A DNA stretch of 64,000 bases from Eubacteriales bacterium (GTDB lineage: Bacteria > Bacillota > Clostridia > Lachnospirales > Lachnospiraceae). The DNA lies in contig JAUNDE010000008.1 of NCBI GenBank assembly GCA_030526265.1, positions 8,943-72,942 on the forward strand. Direction: 5' to 3'. The translations under genes were made by a program, and so were the position numbers. The number at the start of each line of letters is the position of its first letter. Position 1 is the first letter of the stretch. Shown here piece after piece: positions 2,447-49,735 of the stretch. The notes under the pieces were generated by a model, which was given only the letters and a program-made list of their open reading frames with translations, did not search any database and was not told the DNA's origin.

Positions 2447-3346
2447 ATGAGGATAAGGAAACTGGTTGCGATCGAACCTGTGAATTTTCACGCAGAGGGA
2501 AGAGAAGAAGTCAAAAACTATTGTGACGAAGTGATTTTCTACGATACAGAGCCAAAGGATGCAGCAGAGATCACAGAAAGAATCGGAGATGCAGATGCAA
2601 TCTTCGTGAGTTACGTGAACCCGATCGGAGAAGATATTTTAAGCAAATGTCCGAATCTGAAATATATAGGAATGTGCTGCAGCCTTTATTCAGAGGCGAG
2701 TTCGAATGTTGATATCAGATATGCGAGAGAGCATGGTATCGTCGTCAAAGGCGTGAAGGACTATGGTGATGATGGTGTGGGCGAATTCGTGCTCTCAAAC
2801 CTGATCCGGAGACTGCATGGTGTGGACGGATTTGCGCCATTTAAAGGAAATGAATACGAAGTGTCCGGTGTGAAAGTCGGAATACTTGGCATGGGTGCCA
2901 GCGCACAGATGGTTGCAAAAGGGCTCACGGCATTTGGCGGAAATGTATTCTATTACAGCAGAACAAGAAAATCGGAGATCGAAGAGGCGTGCGGCTATCA
3001 GTACCTCGAACTTCATGATCTGCTCCGTGAATGTGATGTGATCTGCAGCTGCCTGAGTAAGAATGTATCACTTCTTTACAAAAAAGAATTTGAGATACTC
3101 GGAGAAAATAAGATCCTGTTCAACAGTGCGCTCAGTCCGTTCTTTGACGTAGAAGAGATGGATCAGTGGCTTGAGAAAGAAAATACATGGTATATCTGCG
3201 ATAATCTTATGGGACTTGGCAAAGAGGAATATCTTGAAAGAGAGAATGTATTCTGCGAAGGCAAATGCTCCGGTATGACGTGGCAGGCGGAAGAACGCCT
3301 GAATAAGAAAGTGATCGAGAATATGAAGGATTACCTTGGGATTTAG
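2447..3346 (+). CDS. D-isomer-specific 2-hydroxyacid dehydrogenase family protein with a divergent active site
   Basis: IGDADAIFV, LKYIGMCCSLY...NVDI...GIVVKG, Rossmann GILGMGASA and YYSRTRK; RBS GAGGAG upstream. Confidence 0.75.
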   Translation: MRIRKLVAIEPVNFHAEGREEVKNYCDEVIFYDTEPKDAAEITERIGDADAIFVSYVNPIGEDILSKCPNLKYIGMCCSLYSEASSNVDIRYAREHGIVVKGVKDYGDDGVGEFVLSNLIRRLHGVDGFAPFKGNEYEVSGVKVGILGMGASAQMVAKGLTAFGGNVFYYSRTRKSEIEEACGYQYLELHDLLRECDVICSCLSKNVSLLYKKEFEILGENKILFNSALSPFFDVEEMDQWLEKENTWYICDNLMGLGKEEYLERENVFCEGKCSGMTWQAEERLNKKVIENMKDYLGI

Positions 3347-21780: not shown

Positions 21781-21853
21781 TCCTCCTTAGCTCAGTCGGT
21801 AGAGCACTCGGCTGTTAACCGAGTTGTCGTTGGTTCAAGTCCAACAGGGGGAG
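21781..21853 (+). tRNA. tRNA-Asn (GTT)
   Basis: Acceptor stem TCCTCCT/AGGGGGA, D arm GCTC/GAGC, anticodon loop CTGTTAA and T loop TTCAAGT; CCA not encoded. Confidence 0.97.
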
Positions 21854-45175: not shown

Positions 45176-46921
45176 ATGACAGAAGAAATTATGAGCGCAG
45201 TCAGCGGACAGGTATTTGGCGTATGGTTCCTCATCGGAGCAGCACTGGTATTCTGGATGCAGGCAGGATTCGCTATGGTAGAGGCAGGTTTTACGAGAGC
45301 GAAGAATACAGGTAACATCATTATGAAAAACCTGATGGACTTCTGTATCGGAACCTGTACATTTATCCTGATCGGTTTCAGTTTACTGTTAGGTGAAGAT
45401 ATGCTTGGTCTGATCGGAAGACCTGGATTTGATATTTTTACAGCATATGCAGGATTTGACTGGTCAAACTTCGTATTTAACCTTGTGTTCTGCGCAACAA
45501 CAGCAACGATCGTTTCCGGAGCAATGGCAGAGAGAACCAAGTTCTTATCTTACTGTATTTATTCCGGAGTGATCTCAGCACTGATCTATCCGATCGAGGC
45601 ACACTGGATCTGGGGCGGTGGCTGGCTTTCCCAGATGGGATTCCACGATTTCGCAGGTTCCTGTGCGATCCATATGGTAGGTGGTATCGCAGCTCTTGTC
45701 GGAGCTAAGATGCTCGGTCCTAGAATCGGTAAATTTACAAAAGACAAAGATGGAAATATCACGAAGGTAAATGCTTTCCCTGGCCACAATCTGGCACTCG
45801 GAGCTCTTGGTGTATTTATCCTCTGGCTTGGCTGGTACGGATTTAACGGAGCTGCAGCAACTTCTGTAGAGCAGCTTGGATCAATCTTCCTTACAACAAC
45901 AGTTGCACCGGCAGTAGCAACCGTTGTATGCATGATCTTTACATGGATCAAATATGGTAAGCCGGATGTGTCTATGTCACTGAACGCTTCCCTTGCGGGA
46001 CTTGTAGCGATCACAGCACCTTGTGATGTGACAGATGCTTTCGGAGCAATCGTGATCGGAGCCGTTGCCGGTGTACTCGTTGTATTCGGTGTGTGGCTTC
46101 TTGATTATAAATTGAGAATCGATGACCCGGTAGGTGCCGTGGCAGTTCACTGCATGAACGGTATCTGGGGAACAATCGCAACAGGACTCTTCGCAACAAC
46201 AAGTGCTCCTGGAAATGATACACTCGTTGGTCTCTTCTACGGCGGAGGATTCGGACTGCTTGGAATTCAGCTCGTTGGTGTACTCGCAGTTGCAGCATGG
46301 ACGGTTGTCACAATTACAATCGTATTTGCAGTCATCAAGGCAACGGTCGGACTTCGTGTCTCAGAGGAAGAAGAGATCGAAGGTCTGGATTCTACAGAGC
46401 ATGGTCTTACATCTGCATACGCAGGCTTCAGTCTGATGGATGTATCCGGATCTATGATCATGGAAGCAAACGAGAATACACAGCTTGGTGAAGATGAGTA
46501 TGAAGCTGCTTCAGAAGTACAGAAGAATGCCGCAGTCAGGGTTGTGAAGACACCTGCTGTCGATACGGGCATGTACAAGGTCGTTATCATTGCGAAACTG
46601 TCTCGCTACGATAAATTGCGTAAAGCAATGAACGATGTTGGTGTAACCGGAATGACTGTAACACAGGTGATGGGCTGTGGCATCCAGAAGGGAAGCGGTG
46701 AGAAATACCGTGGAGCAGAAGTCGATGCAACACTCCTTCCAAAGGTTAAGGTTGAAGTGGTAATCGGAAATCTTCCTGTTGACAGCGTAGTGGAAGCTGC
46801 TAGAAAAGCTCTTTACACAGGCCATATCGGAGATGGCAAGATCTTCGTATACAGTGTGGATAAGATCGTCAAGATCAGAACAGGTGAAGAAGATTTTGAA
46901 GCATTGAAAGATGTAGAATAA
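45176..46921 (+). CDS. amt: Ammonium transporter fused to a C-terminal PII (GlnK-like) domain
   Basis: MQAGFAMVEAG, SGAMAER, HDFAGS..IH (twin His 1), WYGFNG and DDPV..VAVH (twin His 2); C-terminal GVTGMTV...GCGIQKG...YRG...GHIGDGKIF PII motifs. Confidence 0.95.
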   Translation: MTEEIMSAVSGQVFGVWFLIGAALVFWMQAGFAMVEAGFTRAKNTGNIIMKNLMDFCIGTCTFILIGFSLLLGEDMLGLIGRPGFDIFTAYAGFDWSNFVFNLVFCATTATIVSGAMAERTKFLSYCIYSGVISALIYPIEAHWIWGGGWLSQMGFHDFAGSCAIHMVGGIAALVGAKMLGPRIGKFTKDKDGNITKVNAFPGHNLALGALGVFILWLGWYGFNGAAATSVEQLGSIFLTTTVAPAVATVVCMIFTWIKYGKPDVSMSLNASLAGLVAITAPCDVTDAFGAIVIGAVAGVLVVFGVWLLDYKLRIDDPVGAVAVHCMNGIWGTIATGLFATTSAPGNDTLVGLFYGGGFGLLGIQLVGVLAVAAWTVVTITIVFAVIKATVGLRVSEEEEIEGLDSTEHGLTSAYAGFSLMDVSGSMIMEANENTQLGEDEYEAASEVQKNAAVRVVKTPAVDTGMYKVVIIAKLSRYDKLRKAMNDVGVTGMTVTQVMGCGIQKGSGEKYRGAEVDATLLPKVKVEVVIGNLPVDSVVEAARKALYTGHIGDGKIFVYSVDKIVKIRTGEEDFEALKDVE

Positions 46922-47130: not shown

Positions 47131-48291
47131 ATGGAAGAACTGATTTTTGTGGATCGAAAAAATACAAATAGTGTGAAATGGGATGGACAGACAGGAATGT
47201 TTGGGACAGAAGGACTGCATGCAATGTGGGTTGCCGACATGGATATCAAAAGTCCTGCCTGTGTTCGTAAGGCACTGGCTGATTATGTGGAATTTGGGGC
47301 AATTGGATATTACAAAATCCCGGACATCTATTATGAAGCGTTCTTAAACTGGGAGAAATCACATCATGGATTTGAGGGGAAGAAGGAATGGATGCGTTTT
47401 TCTCCGGGTGTAGTGGCCGCATTTAACTGGCTGGTACAGATGATGAGTGAGCCTGGGGATGCTGTCATTGTTAATACACCGGTTTATTATCCGTTTCTCC
47501 ATGCAGTTACAAATAATGGAAGAAAGCTTGTTACGTCAGAGTTAATAAACGAAAATGGAATCTATCGTATCGATTTTGAGGATTTTGAAAATCAGATCGT
47601 AAATCATCAGGTGAAAGTATTTATCCTCTGCTCTCCGCACAATCCGGTCGGACGTGTATGGTCGAAGGACGAGCTTAAGCGGATTCTTGAAATCTGCAGA
47701 CGCCATGGTGTGTTCGTAATATCAGATGAGATTCATCAGGATCTGACATTTTACGGGCATGAACATACGCCGTCTTTCCTGGCGACGGATGACTGGAGTA
47801 ATATTGTCACATTGACTGCTGCGTCAAAGACGTTCAACCTTGCGGGCGGACAGCATGCAATCGTATTGATTCCGGATGAAGCATTAAGAAAGAAATGGGA
47901 TAGTTTCACACTGAAAATACGCATGATGAATGGAAATGCATTCGGATATATTGCAACTGAGGCGGCATATTCCGGGGGAGAAGAATGGTATCAGAATGTC
48001 ATAAAACAAATTCAGGAAAACGATACATACCTGAGAGAGACTTTGAAGAAAGCTTTGCCGGATCTTGTGATCTCGCCGCTAGAAGGAACATATCTCGTCT
48101 GGATCGATCTTCGGGCATATATGGATGCTAAGAAAGTGAAGCCATTTATTATGAATAAGTGTAAACTTGCGGTGGATTTCGGAGACTGGTTTGGAGGAAA
48201 GAAATTCGAGGGCTTTATTCGAATGAATCTGGCCACATCAAAGAAGAATGTGAAGATCGGTGTAGAGAGGATGATTGAAGCTCTGAAATAA
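47131..48291 (+). CDS. MalY/PatB family PLP-dependent C-S lyase (cystathionine beta-lyase-like)
   Basis: NSVKWD, MWVADMD, TPVYYPF, LCSPHNPVGRVW, SDEIHQD, ASKTFNLAG and EGTYLVWID. Confidence 0.93.
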   Translation: MEELIFVDRKNTNSVKWDGQTGMFGTEGLHAMWVADMDIKSPACVRKALADYVEFGAIGYYKIPDIYYEAFLNWEKSHHGFEGKKEWMRFSPGVVAAFNWLVQMMSEPGDAVIVNTPVYYPFLHAVTNNGRKLVTSELINENGIYRIDFEDFENQIVNHQVKVFILCSPHNPVGRVWSKDELKRILEICRRHGVFVISDEIHQDLTFYGHEHTPSFLATDDWSNIVTLTAASKTFNLAGGQHAIVLIPDEALRKKWDSFTLKIRMMNGNAFGYIATEAAYSGGEEWYQNVIKQIQENDTYLRETLKKALPDLVISPLEGTYLVWIDLRAYMDAKKVKPFIMNKCKLAVDFGDWFGGKKFEGFIRMNLATSKKNVKIGVERMIEALK

Positions 48292-48424
48292 TGTTTATAG
48301 ATTTACATAAAGCAATTGAACATGCATTTTTTGTTTGATATGATTTGAGAGTATAATCGAATAGAAACGGATGCGAGATTCTGATTATGTTGCCCTCGTG
48401 TTATACGAAGGGAGGGTGATGCCT

Positions 48425-48505
48425 ATGAATACAATGGAAGTCTTGACTTTATTGTTAGTAATATTTACAGCATTAACCTACATAGATCAGCATAAAAAGA
48501 AATAA
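48425..48505 (+). CDS. Small hydrophobic peptide, putative type I (holin-like) toxin, 26 aa
   Basis: MNTMEVLTLLLVIFTALTYIDQHKKK: one TM helix plus a basic tail; RBS GGAGG at 48411-48415. Too short for the ORF track. Confidence 0.75.
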   Translation: MNTMEVLTLLLVIFTALTYIDQHKKK

Positions 48506-48592
48506 GCATCCCACACGCCAAAGTGAAAATGCTTAAATTCTTTCGATTTACATTTTTACGAGGGCAATCGGATGTTGTGTCCGATTACTTTC
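48495..48592 (-). ncRNA. Putative type I antitoxin antisense RNA
   Basis: Minus-strand promoter TTGATT (48628-48623)-17 bp-TATAAT (48605-48600); hairpins AATCGGA/TCCGATT and AAGCAT/ATGCTT followed by a T run on the minus strand; ends approximate. Confidence 0.6.
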
Positions 48593-48610
48593 TAATTAGA
48601 TTATACATTC

Positions 48611-48640
48611 GGGCACTTGTGAAATCAAGTGCCCTTTTTA
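48611..48640 (+). terminator. Terminator of the toxin transcript, overlapping the antisense promoter
   Basis: GGGCACTTG-TGAAAT-CAAGTGCCC followed by TTTTT. Confidence 0.8.
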
Positions 48641-48666
48641 TTTTTTGTTCAGATTTACTCTATACA

Positions 48667-49038
48667 TTATCTCTTCGCTGGAATGATCTCGAGCCAGTAT
48701 CCGTCCGGATCTGTGATGAAATAGATGCCCATCGCTTTATTTTCGAAGCAGATGCATCCCATCGCTTCGTGTTTTGCGTGAGCAGCTTCGTAGTCATCTA
48801 CAGAAAATGCGAGATGGAATTCGCAGTCGCCGAGGTCGTATGGTCTGTCCATATCCCGAAGCCATGTGAGCTCCAGTTCAAAGTCGGACTCTTCGTTTGC
48901 TACATAGACGATGATGAAAGAGCCGTCTTCGGCTGTTTTTCTTCTTGTCTCTTTCAGACCGAGTGCTTCATCGTAGAATTTCAGTGACTTGTCTAAATCT
49001 GCTACATTGTAATTTTCGTGAATCATTTTAAATTTCAT
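48667..49038 (-). CDS. gloA: Lactoylglutathione lyase (glyoxalase I)/VOC family protein
   Basis: HENYNV.DLDKSL.FY..ALGL, ELELTW, HLAF and FITDPDGYWLEI. Start at ATG 49038. Confidence 0.82.
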   Translation of the reverse strand: MKFKMIHENYNVADLDKSLKFYDEALGLKETRRKTAEDGSFIIVYVANEESDFELELTWLRDMDRPYDLGDCEFHLAFSVDDYEAAHAKHEAMGCICFENKAMGIYFITDPDGYWLEIIPAKR

Positions 49039-49735
49039 AATCTTCATTCTCCTTTTCTATCATATGAATCGCAGTGTCCGGATGAAATGCTTCCGTGTAT
49101 TTCGCTATGATATCGTACTGCTCCCAGAAATGCATCGGGAAAACGTGTTCTGCACATGTCGTTTCCAGGAAATAATTCATTCCATAGCAAAAGGCATCTT
49201 CAAGCCTCGGATCGAGCGGGACGAAGGCCACTTTAAAATGCCAGCCGGCGAGCTTGTCGATCTCCCGCTTGTAGTTCACTTCCATGTTCCGGTTCCATGC
49301 GAGCGGCTCGCCCTCCCAGTGCCACCAGTTCAGATCACCTGCGTGATAAATTGATGTTCCGTCTGTTTCCCTGATCGCAAAAGCAGCTCCCTCATCGGTG
49401 GATTTCAGCGACAGGATACTGCATGACGGAAGAGTAAAGGTCTGTCCGCATTCCGCCCAGATCACCTTGTCAGCCACTTCATCCGGGAGTGAAAACCGCT
49501 TCTTTTTCAGGACCTTTCGGATATCTGTTCCGAAGATGTAGGCATTTGCCTGTTCTGATAACGGATGTTCCAAAATCATTTTGTCAAAGTGGTCTGCATG
49601 TGCATGACTTGCAAAAATATAGAGCGGTTTTTCCGGTTTCAAAACGGGGAGATTTCCCTTGATATAGTCAAACAGATAATATGCAAGTTCTGTTTCTGCG
49701 AGAAATCCGCTGTGCGAAAGATAACGTATGTTCAT
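49028..49735 (-). CDS. MBL-fold metallo-hydrolase
   Basis: YLSHSGF, ASHAHADHF (HxHxDH), STDEG and IYHAGDLN. Start at ATG 49735 (MNIRYL). Confidence 0.85.
   Translation of the reverse strand: MNIRYLSHSGFLAETELAYYLFDYIKGNLPVLKPEKPLYIFASHAHADHFDKMILEHPLSEQANAYIFGTDIRKVLKKKRFSLPDEVADKVIWAECGQTFTLPSCSILSLKSTDEGAAFAIRETDGTSIYHAGDLNWWHWEGEPLAWNRNMEVNYKREIDKLAGWHFKVAFVPLDPRLEDAFCYGMNYFLETTCAEHVFPMHFWEQYDIIAKYTEAFHPDTAIHMIEKENEDYEI

Follow-up and report, generated by a model that had tools for sequence, protein, structure and literature searches.

The intergenic gap at 48292-48666 of the window, by which we mean the whole 64,000-nucleotide stretch of Lachnospiraceae DNA analysed here, appears to be filled by one autonomous module of about 330 bp built like a toxin-antitoxin (TA) system of type I, a reading to which we attach a probability of roughly 0.7. 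The gap lies between a gene for a PatB/MalY-type aminotransferase on its left (47131-48291, plus strand) and a convergent gene of the glyoxalase/VOC family on its right (48667-49047, minus strand). A DNA alignment of the family to which the module belongs sets its span at 48316-48649, conservation starting at the -35 element of the sense promoter and ending just past the terminator. An initial annotation, made from the sequence of the window, had described a small membrane peptide gene with structured untranslated regions (UTRs) and a convergent promoter in this gap, and every sequence feature that it listed was found where it had been placed (Table 1). These features include a TATAAT hexamer, seen on inspection of the sequence, a strong ribosome-binding site whose Shine-Dalgarno (SD) sequence lies 8-9 nt upstream of the ATG at 48425, an open reading frame (ORF) for a 26-residue peptide with a predicted membrane helix and a basic KKK tail, a terminator hairpin (48611-48634) of 9 bp, six of them GC, followed by a T run, and a TTGATT-17-TATAAT promoter on the minus strand that overlaps the terminator. 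A repeat search recovered the perfect 10-nt inverted repeat formed by TTGCCCTCGT and ACGAGGGCAA, and the local alternative pairing near the ribosome-binding site (CCCTCGT with ACGAAGGG) is likewise present.

What places the module beyond chance is that the whole of it is conserved in hundreds of unrelated loci. Searches with back-translated patterns confirmed at least 438 loci in species-representative genomes, nearly all of them from Lachnospiraceae; carriers among the matches listed include Blautia, Roseburia faecis, Eubacterium ramulus, Dorea, Mediterraneibacter faecis, Enterocloster lavalensis, Agathobacter, Lachnospira, Acetatifactor and Kineothrix. In R. faecis JCM 17581 the module is found at about 2,920,900 of NZ_CP173697.1 (L118). 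Two or more copies are present in several genomes, in some cases on different contigs, and 31 loci are on IMG/VR viral contigs. The family consensus reads TTGAnn-17-TATAAT, (T)TGTATAATTGAAAAGAAAG, GGATGYG, ATGCCCTCTAG, a loop and AGAGGGTGATGCCC-ATG across the promoter and leader, then AAAAAGAAATA(A), a hairpin GCATCC...GGATGC and a variable A/T spacer from the end of the ORF onward, and finally CTGAGGGCA, a hairpin ATCGGA...TCCGAT, CTTTCT..TAGATTATAC and the terminator in the 3' part. As to the window copy itself, simple arithmetic gives a chance expectation of about 0.07 for a 10-nt inverted repeat in 381 nt; the repeat search also found a second one, of 12 nt (48351-62/48595-606), and the RNA from 48364 to 48645 folds with a z-score of -5.2 against dinucleotide shuffles.

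The peptide, MNTMEVLTLLLVIFTALTYIDQHKKK, has an acidic N end, a hydrophobic helix of 14-16 residues (core V6-I20) and the basic tail already mentioned, and its ORF falls inside a 44-aa ORF of the ORF listing. Small hydrophobic ORFs with their own SD, the core GGAGG being 8-9 nt upstream, are found in more than 100 loci. The length is 25-28 codons in 107 of 111 copies, 108 of which start with ATG. Across 87 distinct sequences the non-consensus letters are distributed over codon positions 1, 2 and 3 as 284/55/618, and the codon changes comprise 558 synonymous versus 190 nonsynonymous, compared with 164/606 and 35/751 in the other two frames. This substitution pattern indicates, with very high confidence, that the ORF is translated and under coding selection within a conserved module; conservation in homologous loci was the test that the initial annotation had set for its proposal, and the ORF is conserved in them. 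The sequence AAAAAGAAAT at the end of the ORF is nearly invariant, third codon positions included. This points to an added constraint at the nucleotide level, as would be expected if the run of lysine codons doubles as the U tract of an antisense RNA. When the 44-aa ORF was used as query, 44 predicted proteins were matched, sharing an invariant core MNTMEVLTL.LV.F.AL, then Y-I-D-x-H and a tail of basic residues. The N-terminal extensions of these proteins bear no relation to one another, as with mis-called starts.

No other site in the region resembles a promoter as closely as the antisense one (10 of 12 consensus positions), which by the following counts is also the best conserved element of the module. 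Among 91 representatives less than 93% identical to one another, the -10 is a perfect TATAAT in 80 and the spacer is 17 nt in 86, the -35 reading TTGAAA, TTGATT or TTGCAA; 75 of the 91 score at least 10 of 12, and shuffled controls never exceed 9.5. On the plus strand the -10 appears as ATTATA, which is retained in 76 of 79 aligned modules. About 100 nt downstream of the promoter comes the complement of the hairpin that follows the stop codon, and then UAUUUCUUUUU, the complement of the lysine codons. The predicted RNA would thus run from a 5' AGAAAG through a hairpin, GCCCUC and an A/U linker to a 3' hairpin and U tract, a two-hairpin fold common to four homologues (z -2.9 to -4.6). Its predicted length, taken from the promoter and the hairpin with its U tract, agrees with the minus-strand RNA of about 100 nt that had been guessed beforehand. 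From these sequence features we have high confidence in a convergent antisense gene for this predicted RNA.

It could be argued instead that the promoter match is a by-product of a bidirectional terminator, that no antisense RNA is made and that control is by mRNA folding only. The RNA evidence at hand is unstranded, and the minus-strand glyoxalase gene ends 30 nt away, with an RNA contig from it reaching 48580, so that read-through is possible; but the -10 and its 17-nt spacing are kept in the proportions just given, whereas the terminator stem varies freely. The stem covaries strongly (seven of nine pairs altered on both sides), with the TTG of the embedded -35 kept. A divergent subfamily, most of it phage-borne and with different UTR sequences, has the promoter too, as do loci with unrelated downstream genes, and the hairpin and U tract stand at a fixed distance downstream. 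We consider this explanation very unlikely.

Two further observations concern the antisense strand. The RNA contig from the glyoxalase gene (48580-48745) begins inside that gene, on the minus strand, and passes through the terminator to 48580; read-through of this kind may add antisense RNA over the 3' UTR. At one locus of a Lachnospiraceae metagenome-assembled genome (L095, 3191-3263) a minus-strand tRNA-Gly(GCC) gene replaces the terminator directly upstream of the antisense -10, the sense promoter region being replaced too, and there the antisense part may be co-transcribed with the tRNA.

The module is transcribed in vivo above its surroundings, because RNA contigs cover it and leave its flanks uncovered. 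Such contigs come from pig, bovine and other metatranscriptomes, in all of which the flanks are silent. A bovine metatranscriptome contig spans 48364-48562 with two differences. A Blautia-type copy (L082) is covered from 2942 to 3160 in three runs, the 340 nt upstream and 440 nt downstream having no coverage, and three RNA-type libraries, among them one with the label metagenomic RNA-Seq, yield discrete contigs over the R. faecis copy. All of these data are unstranded assembled contigs, in which sense and antisense RNA are inseparable. One pig metatranscriptome contig (X27, record 9), covering 48566-48609, is a fold-back in which the minus strand from 48609 to 48566 is joined to the plus strand from 48587 to 48609. 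It fits self-priming by the ATCGGA/TCCGAT hairpin of a molecule ending at about 48566, and in another sample a sense contig ends at 48562; there could be a processing or cleavage site on the 5' side of the 3'-UTR hairpin.

The TATAAT that the initial annotation had named is present, but the sense promoter conserved in the family is a different one, TTGAAC-17-TATGAT (P1), which went unmentioned there and has a predicted start near 48351. The P1 pair occurs family-wide as TTGAAC, TTGAGA or TTGAGC with TATAAT or TATACT, and the edge of conservation is exactly here. The hexamer at 48352 is perfect in only 31 of 79 relatives, and its common variants (GTGTAAT, GTATAAC and GTATAGC) break key -10 positions, some of them retaining G-U pairing with an invariant 3' partner; it has no usable -35, and its place in the inverted repeat is on the left arm, facing the antisense -10. 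Because P1 is a standard promoter pair that marks the conservation edge, and because the 48352 hexamer is poorly kept, P1 is probably the main sense promoter, and a start near 48351 would give an mRNA with a paired 5' end. Two RNA contigs start 7-8 nt past the hexamer or its equivalent (at 48364 and at the corresponding point of L082), which leaves room for a second start at 48364, or for 5' processing, either of which may occur. A third locus, that of R. faecis, gave scattered ends (2861, 2939 and 2986), and the start site was therefore not assigned from contig ends.

Further along the leader, the CCC/GGG pairs between the anti-SD and the SD are retained in 70-72 of 79 sequences, with UA/GC replacements. 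There is a second in-frame ATG 6 nt upstream of the start codon (48419-48427, ATGCCTATG), and the GTGATGCC spacer is conserved. As one extra base puts the upstream ATG out of frame in many relatives, the conservation of GTGATGCC is probably at the RNA level, where it repeats the UGCCC of the anti-SD.

Table 1. Elements of the module and their positions in the window
Element	Position	Strand	Details
Sense promoter P1	48316..48344	+	-35 TTGAAC (48316-21), 17-nt spacer, -10 TATGAT (48339-44), TG upstream
5' leader, left arm of imperfect inverted repeat	48351..48399	+	about 72% identity (family median) to reverse-complemented 3' UTR
Parts of the leader		+	clamp strands 48351-62 and 48363-67; GGATGCG 48369-75; anti-SD TTGCCCTCGT 48390-99
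TATAAT of the initial annotation	48352..48357	+	may be a second -10 (start near 48364) or simply belong to the paired 5' end of P1 mRNA
Shine-Dalgarno GGGAGGG	48410..48416	+	paired with anti-SD in predicted ground state
ORF, 26-aa peptide MNTMEVLTLLLVIFTALTYIDQHKKK	48425..48505	+	stop TAA 48503-05; predicted single-helix membrane toxin
Lysine codons AAAAAGAAA, stop and hairpin AAGCAT..ATGCTT	48492..48534		on the minus strand, predicted antisense terminator hairpin and U tract
Predicted antisense RNA, about 100 nt	48492..48593	-	ends inferred from promoter and hairpin; covers 3' UTR, stop codon and last codons
A/T-rich spacer	48535..48557	+	sequence and length variable across family
3' UTR, right arm of inverted repeat	48558..48606	+	inverted-repeat, helix and duplex tests
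Parts of the 3' UTR		+	ACGAGGGCAA 48558-67 (anti-SD partner); hairpin ATCGGA..TCCGAT 48567-85; TTTCT 48589-93; ATTAGATTATAC 48595-606
Antisense promoter	48600..48628	-	-35 TTGATT (48628-23) in terminator loop and 3' arm, 17-nt spacer, -10 TATAAT (48605-00)
Intrinsic terminator of sense mRNA	48611..48646	+	stem 48611-19/48626-34, T run 48635-46

The two arms of the inverted repeat match imperfectly: the 5' leader (48351-99) shows about 72% identity, as a family median, to the reverse-complemented 3' UTR (48558-606), so that the leader of the mRNA comes close to being a copy of the predicted antisense RNA. The 10-nt long-range pairing that had been pointed out before is present, but it is merely the core of this complementarity of about 50 nt. 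For the window copy the duplex of 5' and 3' UTRs has a computed energy of -45.6 kcal/mol, against -17.3 for shuffles; the family medians are -40.8 and -15.9 kcal/mol, with a median z of -7.3 and z below -2 in 72 of 72 cases.

As competing helices and indels blur the RNAalifold consensus, which recovered only 15 pairs from the full alignment, helices were tested one by one in an alignment of 79 sequences, with slid partners and 500 shuffles as controls. The long-range set consists of the clamp at the 5' end, GGAUGYR paired to the 3'-UTR hairpin in its loop and 3' arm, the anti-SD with CUGAGGGCA, the post-stop hairpin and the terminator. It is 77.7% paired, against 38-45% for slid partners, with 30 pairs altered on both sides, and none of the 500 shuffles scored as high. 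Within it the two clamp helices are 82.5% and 74.5% paired (10 of 17 clamp pairs altered on both sides) and the post-stop hairpin AAGCAT..ATGCTT 93.6%; the clearest covariation is shown by 5' GGAUGYR and its partner in the 3'-UTR hairpin (CG 33/UA 22; GC 44/AU 13/GU 11). The local set, made up of GGAUGC with the post-stop GCAUCC, the anti-SD with the SD, the 3'-UTR hairpin and the terminator, is 78.7% paired, and its helix between 5' GGAUGC and GCAUCC (48506-11) 95.9%, with AU to GC changes. Because several strands have two conserved partners, the mRNA probably has alternative states.

The minimum free energy (MFE) fold of the full window mRNA (-94.2 kcal/mol) combines the 5'-3' clamp, the GGAUGC/GCAUCC helix and the anti-SD/SD hairpin, and is predicted to be an inert ground state like those of other type I toxin mRNAs. 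The initial annotation had further proposed a conformational switch that sets translation. In 68 canonical relatives the SD is, on average, unpaired with a modelled probability of 0.28 when the 3' UTR is free, against 0.16 when the antisense target is masked or absent, and it is more open with a free 3' UTR in 47 of the 68 versus 3 (p = 2e-10). The direction is that expected if antisense binding returns the anti-SD to the SD, and the effect is small. For the family this lends the proposal weak support, but nothing of it is seen in the window copy, where modelled SD accessibility is 0.22 in all states, with or without the 3' UTR; the switch might operate in some other way, for instance on a processed RNA, or be lacking altogether. 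Our confidence in a specific conformational switch, based on these models, is low to moderate.

Put together, the elements suggest the following scheme. The sigma-A-type P1 promoter, possibly helped by the -10 at 48352, would make an mRNA of about 285-295 nt ending at the terminator, and the 26-residue peptide, if made in excess, would insert into the membrane and damage it. In the ground state the mRNA would be silent: its first 17 or so nucleotides would clamp onto the sequence just before the terminator, GGAUGC would pair with the GCAUCC right past the stop codon, and the anti-SD UGCCCUC would cover the SD. The convergent promoter in the terminator would make the antisense RNA. Throughout its length this RNA would be complementary to the 3' UTR, stop codon and final lysine codons; its 5' half would be a near copy of the mRNA leader, with which the RNA would compete for the 3' UTR. 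With the antisense RNA bound, the anti-SD would be left with the SD as its sole partner, translation would be off, and the long perfect duplex would be a likely substrate for a double-strand RNase, so that the mRNA decays; with the antisense RNA absent, the 3' UTR would capture the anti-SD and partly free the SD. Toxicity, the antisense transcript with its ends, and the direction of the switch are the parts of this model that we infer.

The same elements allow a more speculative reading, which we hold only tentatively and think less than probable: molecular mimicry, in which the leader and the antisense RNA, as diverged copies of one sequence, compete for the 3' UTR and its occupancy reads out the level of antitoxin. 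Were the leader bound, the anti-SD would be captured and the SD could open; were the antisense RNA bound, the anti-SD would fall back onto the SD and the duplex would direct decay. If true, it would amount to a kind of control not described before in type I systems, used by a family that is abundant and unstudied, and the module might also act in prophage maintenance or phage exclusion.

A tiny hydrophobic peptide whose tail is polybasic, an mRNA that is locked and an antisense promoter in convergent position together form the signature of type I toxins (TxpA, BsrG, Fst, Hok). By analogy, the module would work like bsrG/SR4 and txpA/RatA, to which it is closest in layout, with no detectable homology. 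A convergent antisense gene overlapping the 3' end of the toxin mRNA, as in the TxpA and BsrG systems, is seen here at the level of predicted genes (48628-48600, minus strand). The earlier view that the layout is that of Bacillota type I systems can be kept in so far as a compact arrangement of the 3'-overlapping Bacillus kind is conserved as a unit, but not as regards kinship of the toxin: there is no detectable membership of Hol_Tox. Comparison with the holin-like toxins, which had been suggested as a check, gave no match to the Pfam Hol_Tox model, with which the positive controls BsrG (sequence verified in SPbeta) and TxpA scored 1.8e-8 and 1.8e-7, and hhalign of the family against BsrG returned a probability of 14%. 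An N-terminal likeness to BsrG and TxpA (M-x-T-x-E-x-L) is unsupported by these two tests.

The likeness to bsrG/SR4, from the SPbeta prophage of B. subtilis, extends from a small hydrophobic toxin with a KKK tail, an antisense RNA, predicted in the module, that is convergent and overlaps the 3' end of the mRNA, and presence in prophage and chromosome alike to the mode of control. SR4 binding at the 3' end of the bsrG mRNA extends SD sequestration from 4 to 8 bp and promotes decay (PMC3834814); in both systems, the side of the module being predicted, the SD is partly sequestered in the free mRNA and the antitoxin binds far from the SD, tightening sequestration and decay (PMC3834814). The module differs in the length of its peptide (26 aa, against 38 aa for BsrG) and the lack of detectable sequence homology, in having its antisense promoter inside the sense terminator, and in an mRNA leader that is a near copy of the predicted antisense RNA, with 5'/3' complementarity of about 50 nt. 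The txpA/RatA pair, from the skin element of B. subtilis, likewise combines a convergent antisense RNA at the toxin 3' end with a membrane peptide and a location in a mobile element, but TxpA has 59 aa and belongs to Hol_Tox, and the module has no Rfam match to a known antitoxin RNA. RatA acts via RNase III-dependent decay. We know of no description of such long 5'/3' leader complementarity (about 50 nt) for bsrG.

Other systems share single traits. In the par locus of E. faecalis plasmid pAD1 (fst RNA I / RNA II) the RNAs are convergent with a shared bidirectional terminator region, and the structure of the toxin mRNA masks the SD. Repeats common to both ends of the locus are found in both, and convergent toxin and antitoxin RNAs and a masked SD are predicted for the module; the par repeats, however, make RNA II complementary to the 5' initiation region of RNA I, whereas the predicted antisense RNA of the module resembles the leader, and the peptide has no match to Fst models. 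In hok/Sok (plasmid R1) and aapA1/IsoA1 (Helicobacter pylori) the full-length toxin mRNA is kept inert by pairing between its distant 5' and 3' parts, and the MFE fold of the module has a 5'-3' clamp that is conserved in the family. Unlike the module, whose predicted antisense RNA targets 48492-48593 (3' UTR and stop codon) rather than the 5' leader, these systems have antisense RNAs directed at the 5' region, need 3' trimming for activation, reside in Gram-negative hosts and encode unrelated peptides. The type I modules of Clostridioides difficile, located in prophages and next to CRISPR arrays, encode toxins of about 50 aa with cis-antisense RNAs; they have in common with the present module the class Clostridia, an association with prophages and small membrane toxins, but their toxins, about 50 aa long, are unrelated in sequence to its peptide.

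Database searches agree in placing the module outside known families. The peptide has no match in Pfam (Hol_Tox included) or NCBIfam at E-values up to 10, the named type I toxins Fst/Ldr, Hok/Gef, Ibs and TisB among them, nor in PADLOC or PHROGs. A profile search of 1.84 billion protein cluster representatives gave 338 matches, and the 150 of these that were listed all belong to the same tight family, giving no remote-homology bridge to a known toxin family. In Rfam 15 no antitoxin or structured RNA family reaches the gathering score in the module, and a permissive scan of 48250-48700 returned only sub-threshold matches at chance level, the best being GcvB with 19.6 bits against a cut-off of 42. 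Our literature search found no report of the peptide sequence, nor of any type I system in Lachnospiraceae. Judged by these comparisons, the module is a new family, previously undescribed and unannotated.

Should the peptide not be toxic, it could be a small membrane protein of another kind, such as a transporter modulator or a stress factor, regulated by a cis-antisense RNA and structured UTRs and with no TA relationship. We regard this as unlikely. It would suit a peptide that is conserved and translated yet has no toxin-family match, an SD that is covered in each state modelled, as would suit tight control of whatever sort, and the many copies between housekeeping genes; on the other hand, the module has no fixed gene neighbour that might be a partner, it moves between chromosomes and phages and is present in several copies, and the combination of peptide, polybasic tail, locked mRNA and convergent promoter is that of a type I toxin. 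By analogy with the known systems we have moderate confidence that the peptide is toxic and the RNA its antitoxin.

Several points weigh against the type I TA assignment and its mechanism. The peptide matches no known toxin family, and the hhalign result with BsrG is low. The RNA evidence is all unstranded, with noisy contig ends. The core pairs between the anti-SD and the 3' UTR are almost invariant and hence show little covariation, many of the alternative helices share strands, so that pairing counts cannot tell which of them form in vivo, and the related sequences are phylogenetically linked, which inflates the comparison with shuffled controls. Lastly, SD accessibility in the window copy does not change between modelled states.

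The genomic contexts of the family resemble those of known type I systems, with chromosomal sites between housekeeping genes, phage contigs and several copies per genome. A copy that is widely distributed is found between groES-groEL/focA and coaX/radA/clpC, and a viral copy adjoins an HU-like gene and a tail-fibre chaperone domain; no gene neighbour is fixed across the module loci. At some loci two copies are found within 1-2 kb, and pairs occur within a single 6-kb locus at L104, L135, L145, L119, L088, L128 and L140. Elsewhere in the 64-kb window no paralogue was found. Plasmids gave no module match and annotated phages one, an unannotated faecal phage record. At 80 patB loci of other genera (at most 65% identity) both the peptide and the intergenic sequence are absent, so that no orthologous comparison is available here.

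Such a distribution might also be that of a miniature mobile element, the arms of about 50 nt being terminal inverted repeats recognised by a transposase acting in trans and the ORF and promoters passengers. We think this highly improbable. Imperfect inverted arms do stand at both ends, the intergenic sites are many and the copies multiple, the module is absent from the patB loci of related genera, and a 99%-identical copy in a bovine sample has a different left flank from 48299; the arms, however, lie inside the promoters and not at the ends of the conserved block, and they vary as RNA does, by changes that allow G-U pairing and by compensatory pairs. Coding selection acts on the ORF, and no transposase accompanies the module. 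The window copy is flanked by an 8-nt direct repeat, AGATTTAC (48299-306 and 48651-58), which was considered as a target-site duplication, but across the family flanking direct repeats are no commoner than in shuffled controls, and this candidate was rejected.

The bovine copy is on a 1223-nt contig of a gut metagenome (X13), with four differences and one gap (about 99% identity over 48299-48670). The contig diverges fully to the left of 48299, 8 nt past the patB stop codon, and thus has another genomic context; a nearly identical module in a different setting hints at its recent transfer. In three metagenomes (X7, X16 and X20) contigs are 5-25 times deeper over the ORF core (48397-48504) than over the flanks, and many of them diverge to the left and right alike; a single gut community therefore contains many different copies of the family.

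Some members of the family depart from the common plan. A divergent subfamily, largely on viral contigs (L163, L172, L175, L177, L133, L151, L190 and L159), has a different leader (GGGATAGTCTGGTG...), an anti-SD hairpin CTTTCTGG-AAA-CAGAAAGGGGG and a different 3' UTR, with 5'/3' complementarity and the antisense TATAAT kept. Decayed copies are represented by L126 (ORF 1731-1808) and L129 (668-742), defects in the decayed set being a stop at codon 7 and ACG in place of ATG. A possible orphan antitoxin is seen at L140 (4036-4345), which has lost the 5' leader and the start of the ORF and kept the 3' UTR and the antisense promoter.

Nearly all that has been worked out about type I TA systems comes from Enterobacteria, Bacillus, Enterococcus, Staphylococcus, Helicobacter and C. 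difficile. The family described here is present in hundreds of Lachnospiraceae species, spanning the dominant butyrate-producing Lachnospiraceae of the gut, often in several copies, and in their phages. It has gone unannotated: peptides of 25-28 aa are below the limits of gene callers, and most database entries are mis-extended ORFs. If it is a genuine TA pair, it would offer a handle on the physiology of stress or persistence, on the stabilisation of prophages and possibly on defence against phages in key gut commensals of humans and livestock, a compact and portable RNA-controlled kill switch for genetically difficult anaerobes, and a natural test case for long-range communication between 5' and 3' UTRs; it would also show that the "empty" intergenic gaps of these genomes hold conserved genes.

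Two other features of the window may be recorded. A tRNA gene (21781-21853) is the sole Rfam match at gathering level in all 64 kb, and a 581-aa ORF (45176-46921) encodes, as judged by eye from the translation, an apparent fusion of an ammonium transporter with a C-terminal P-II-like domain.

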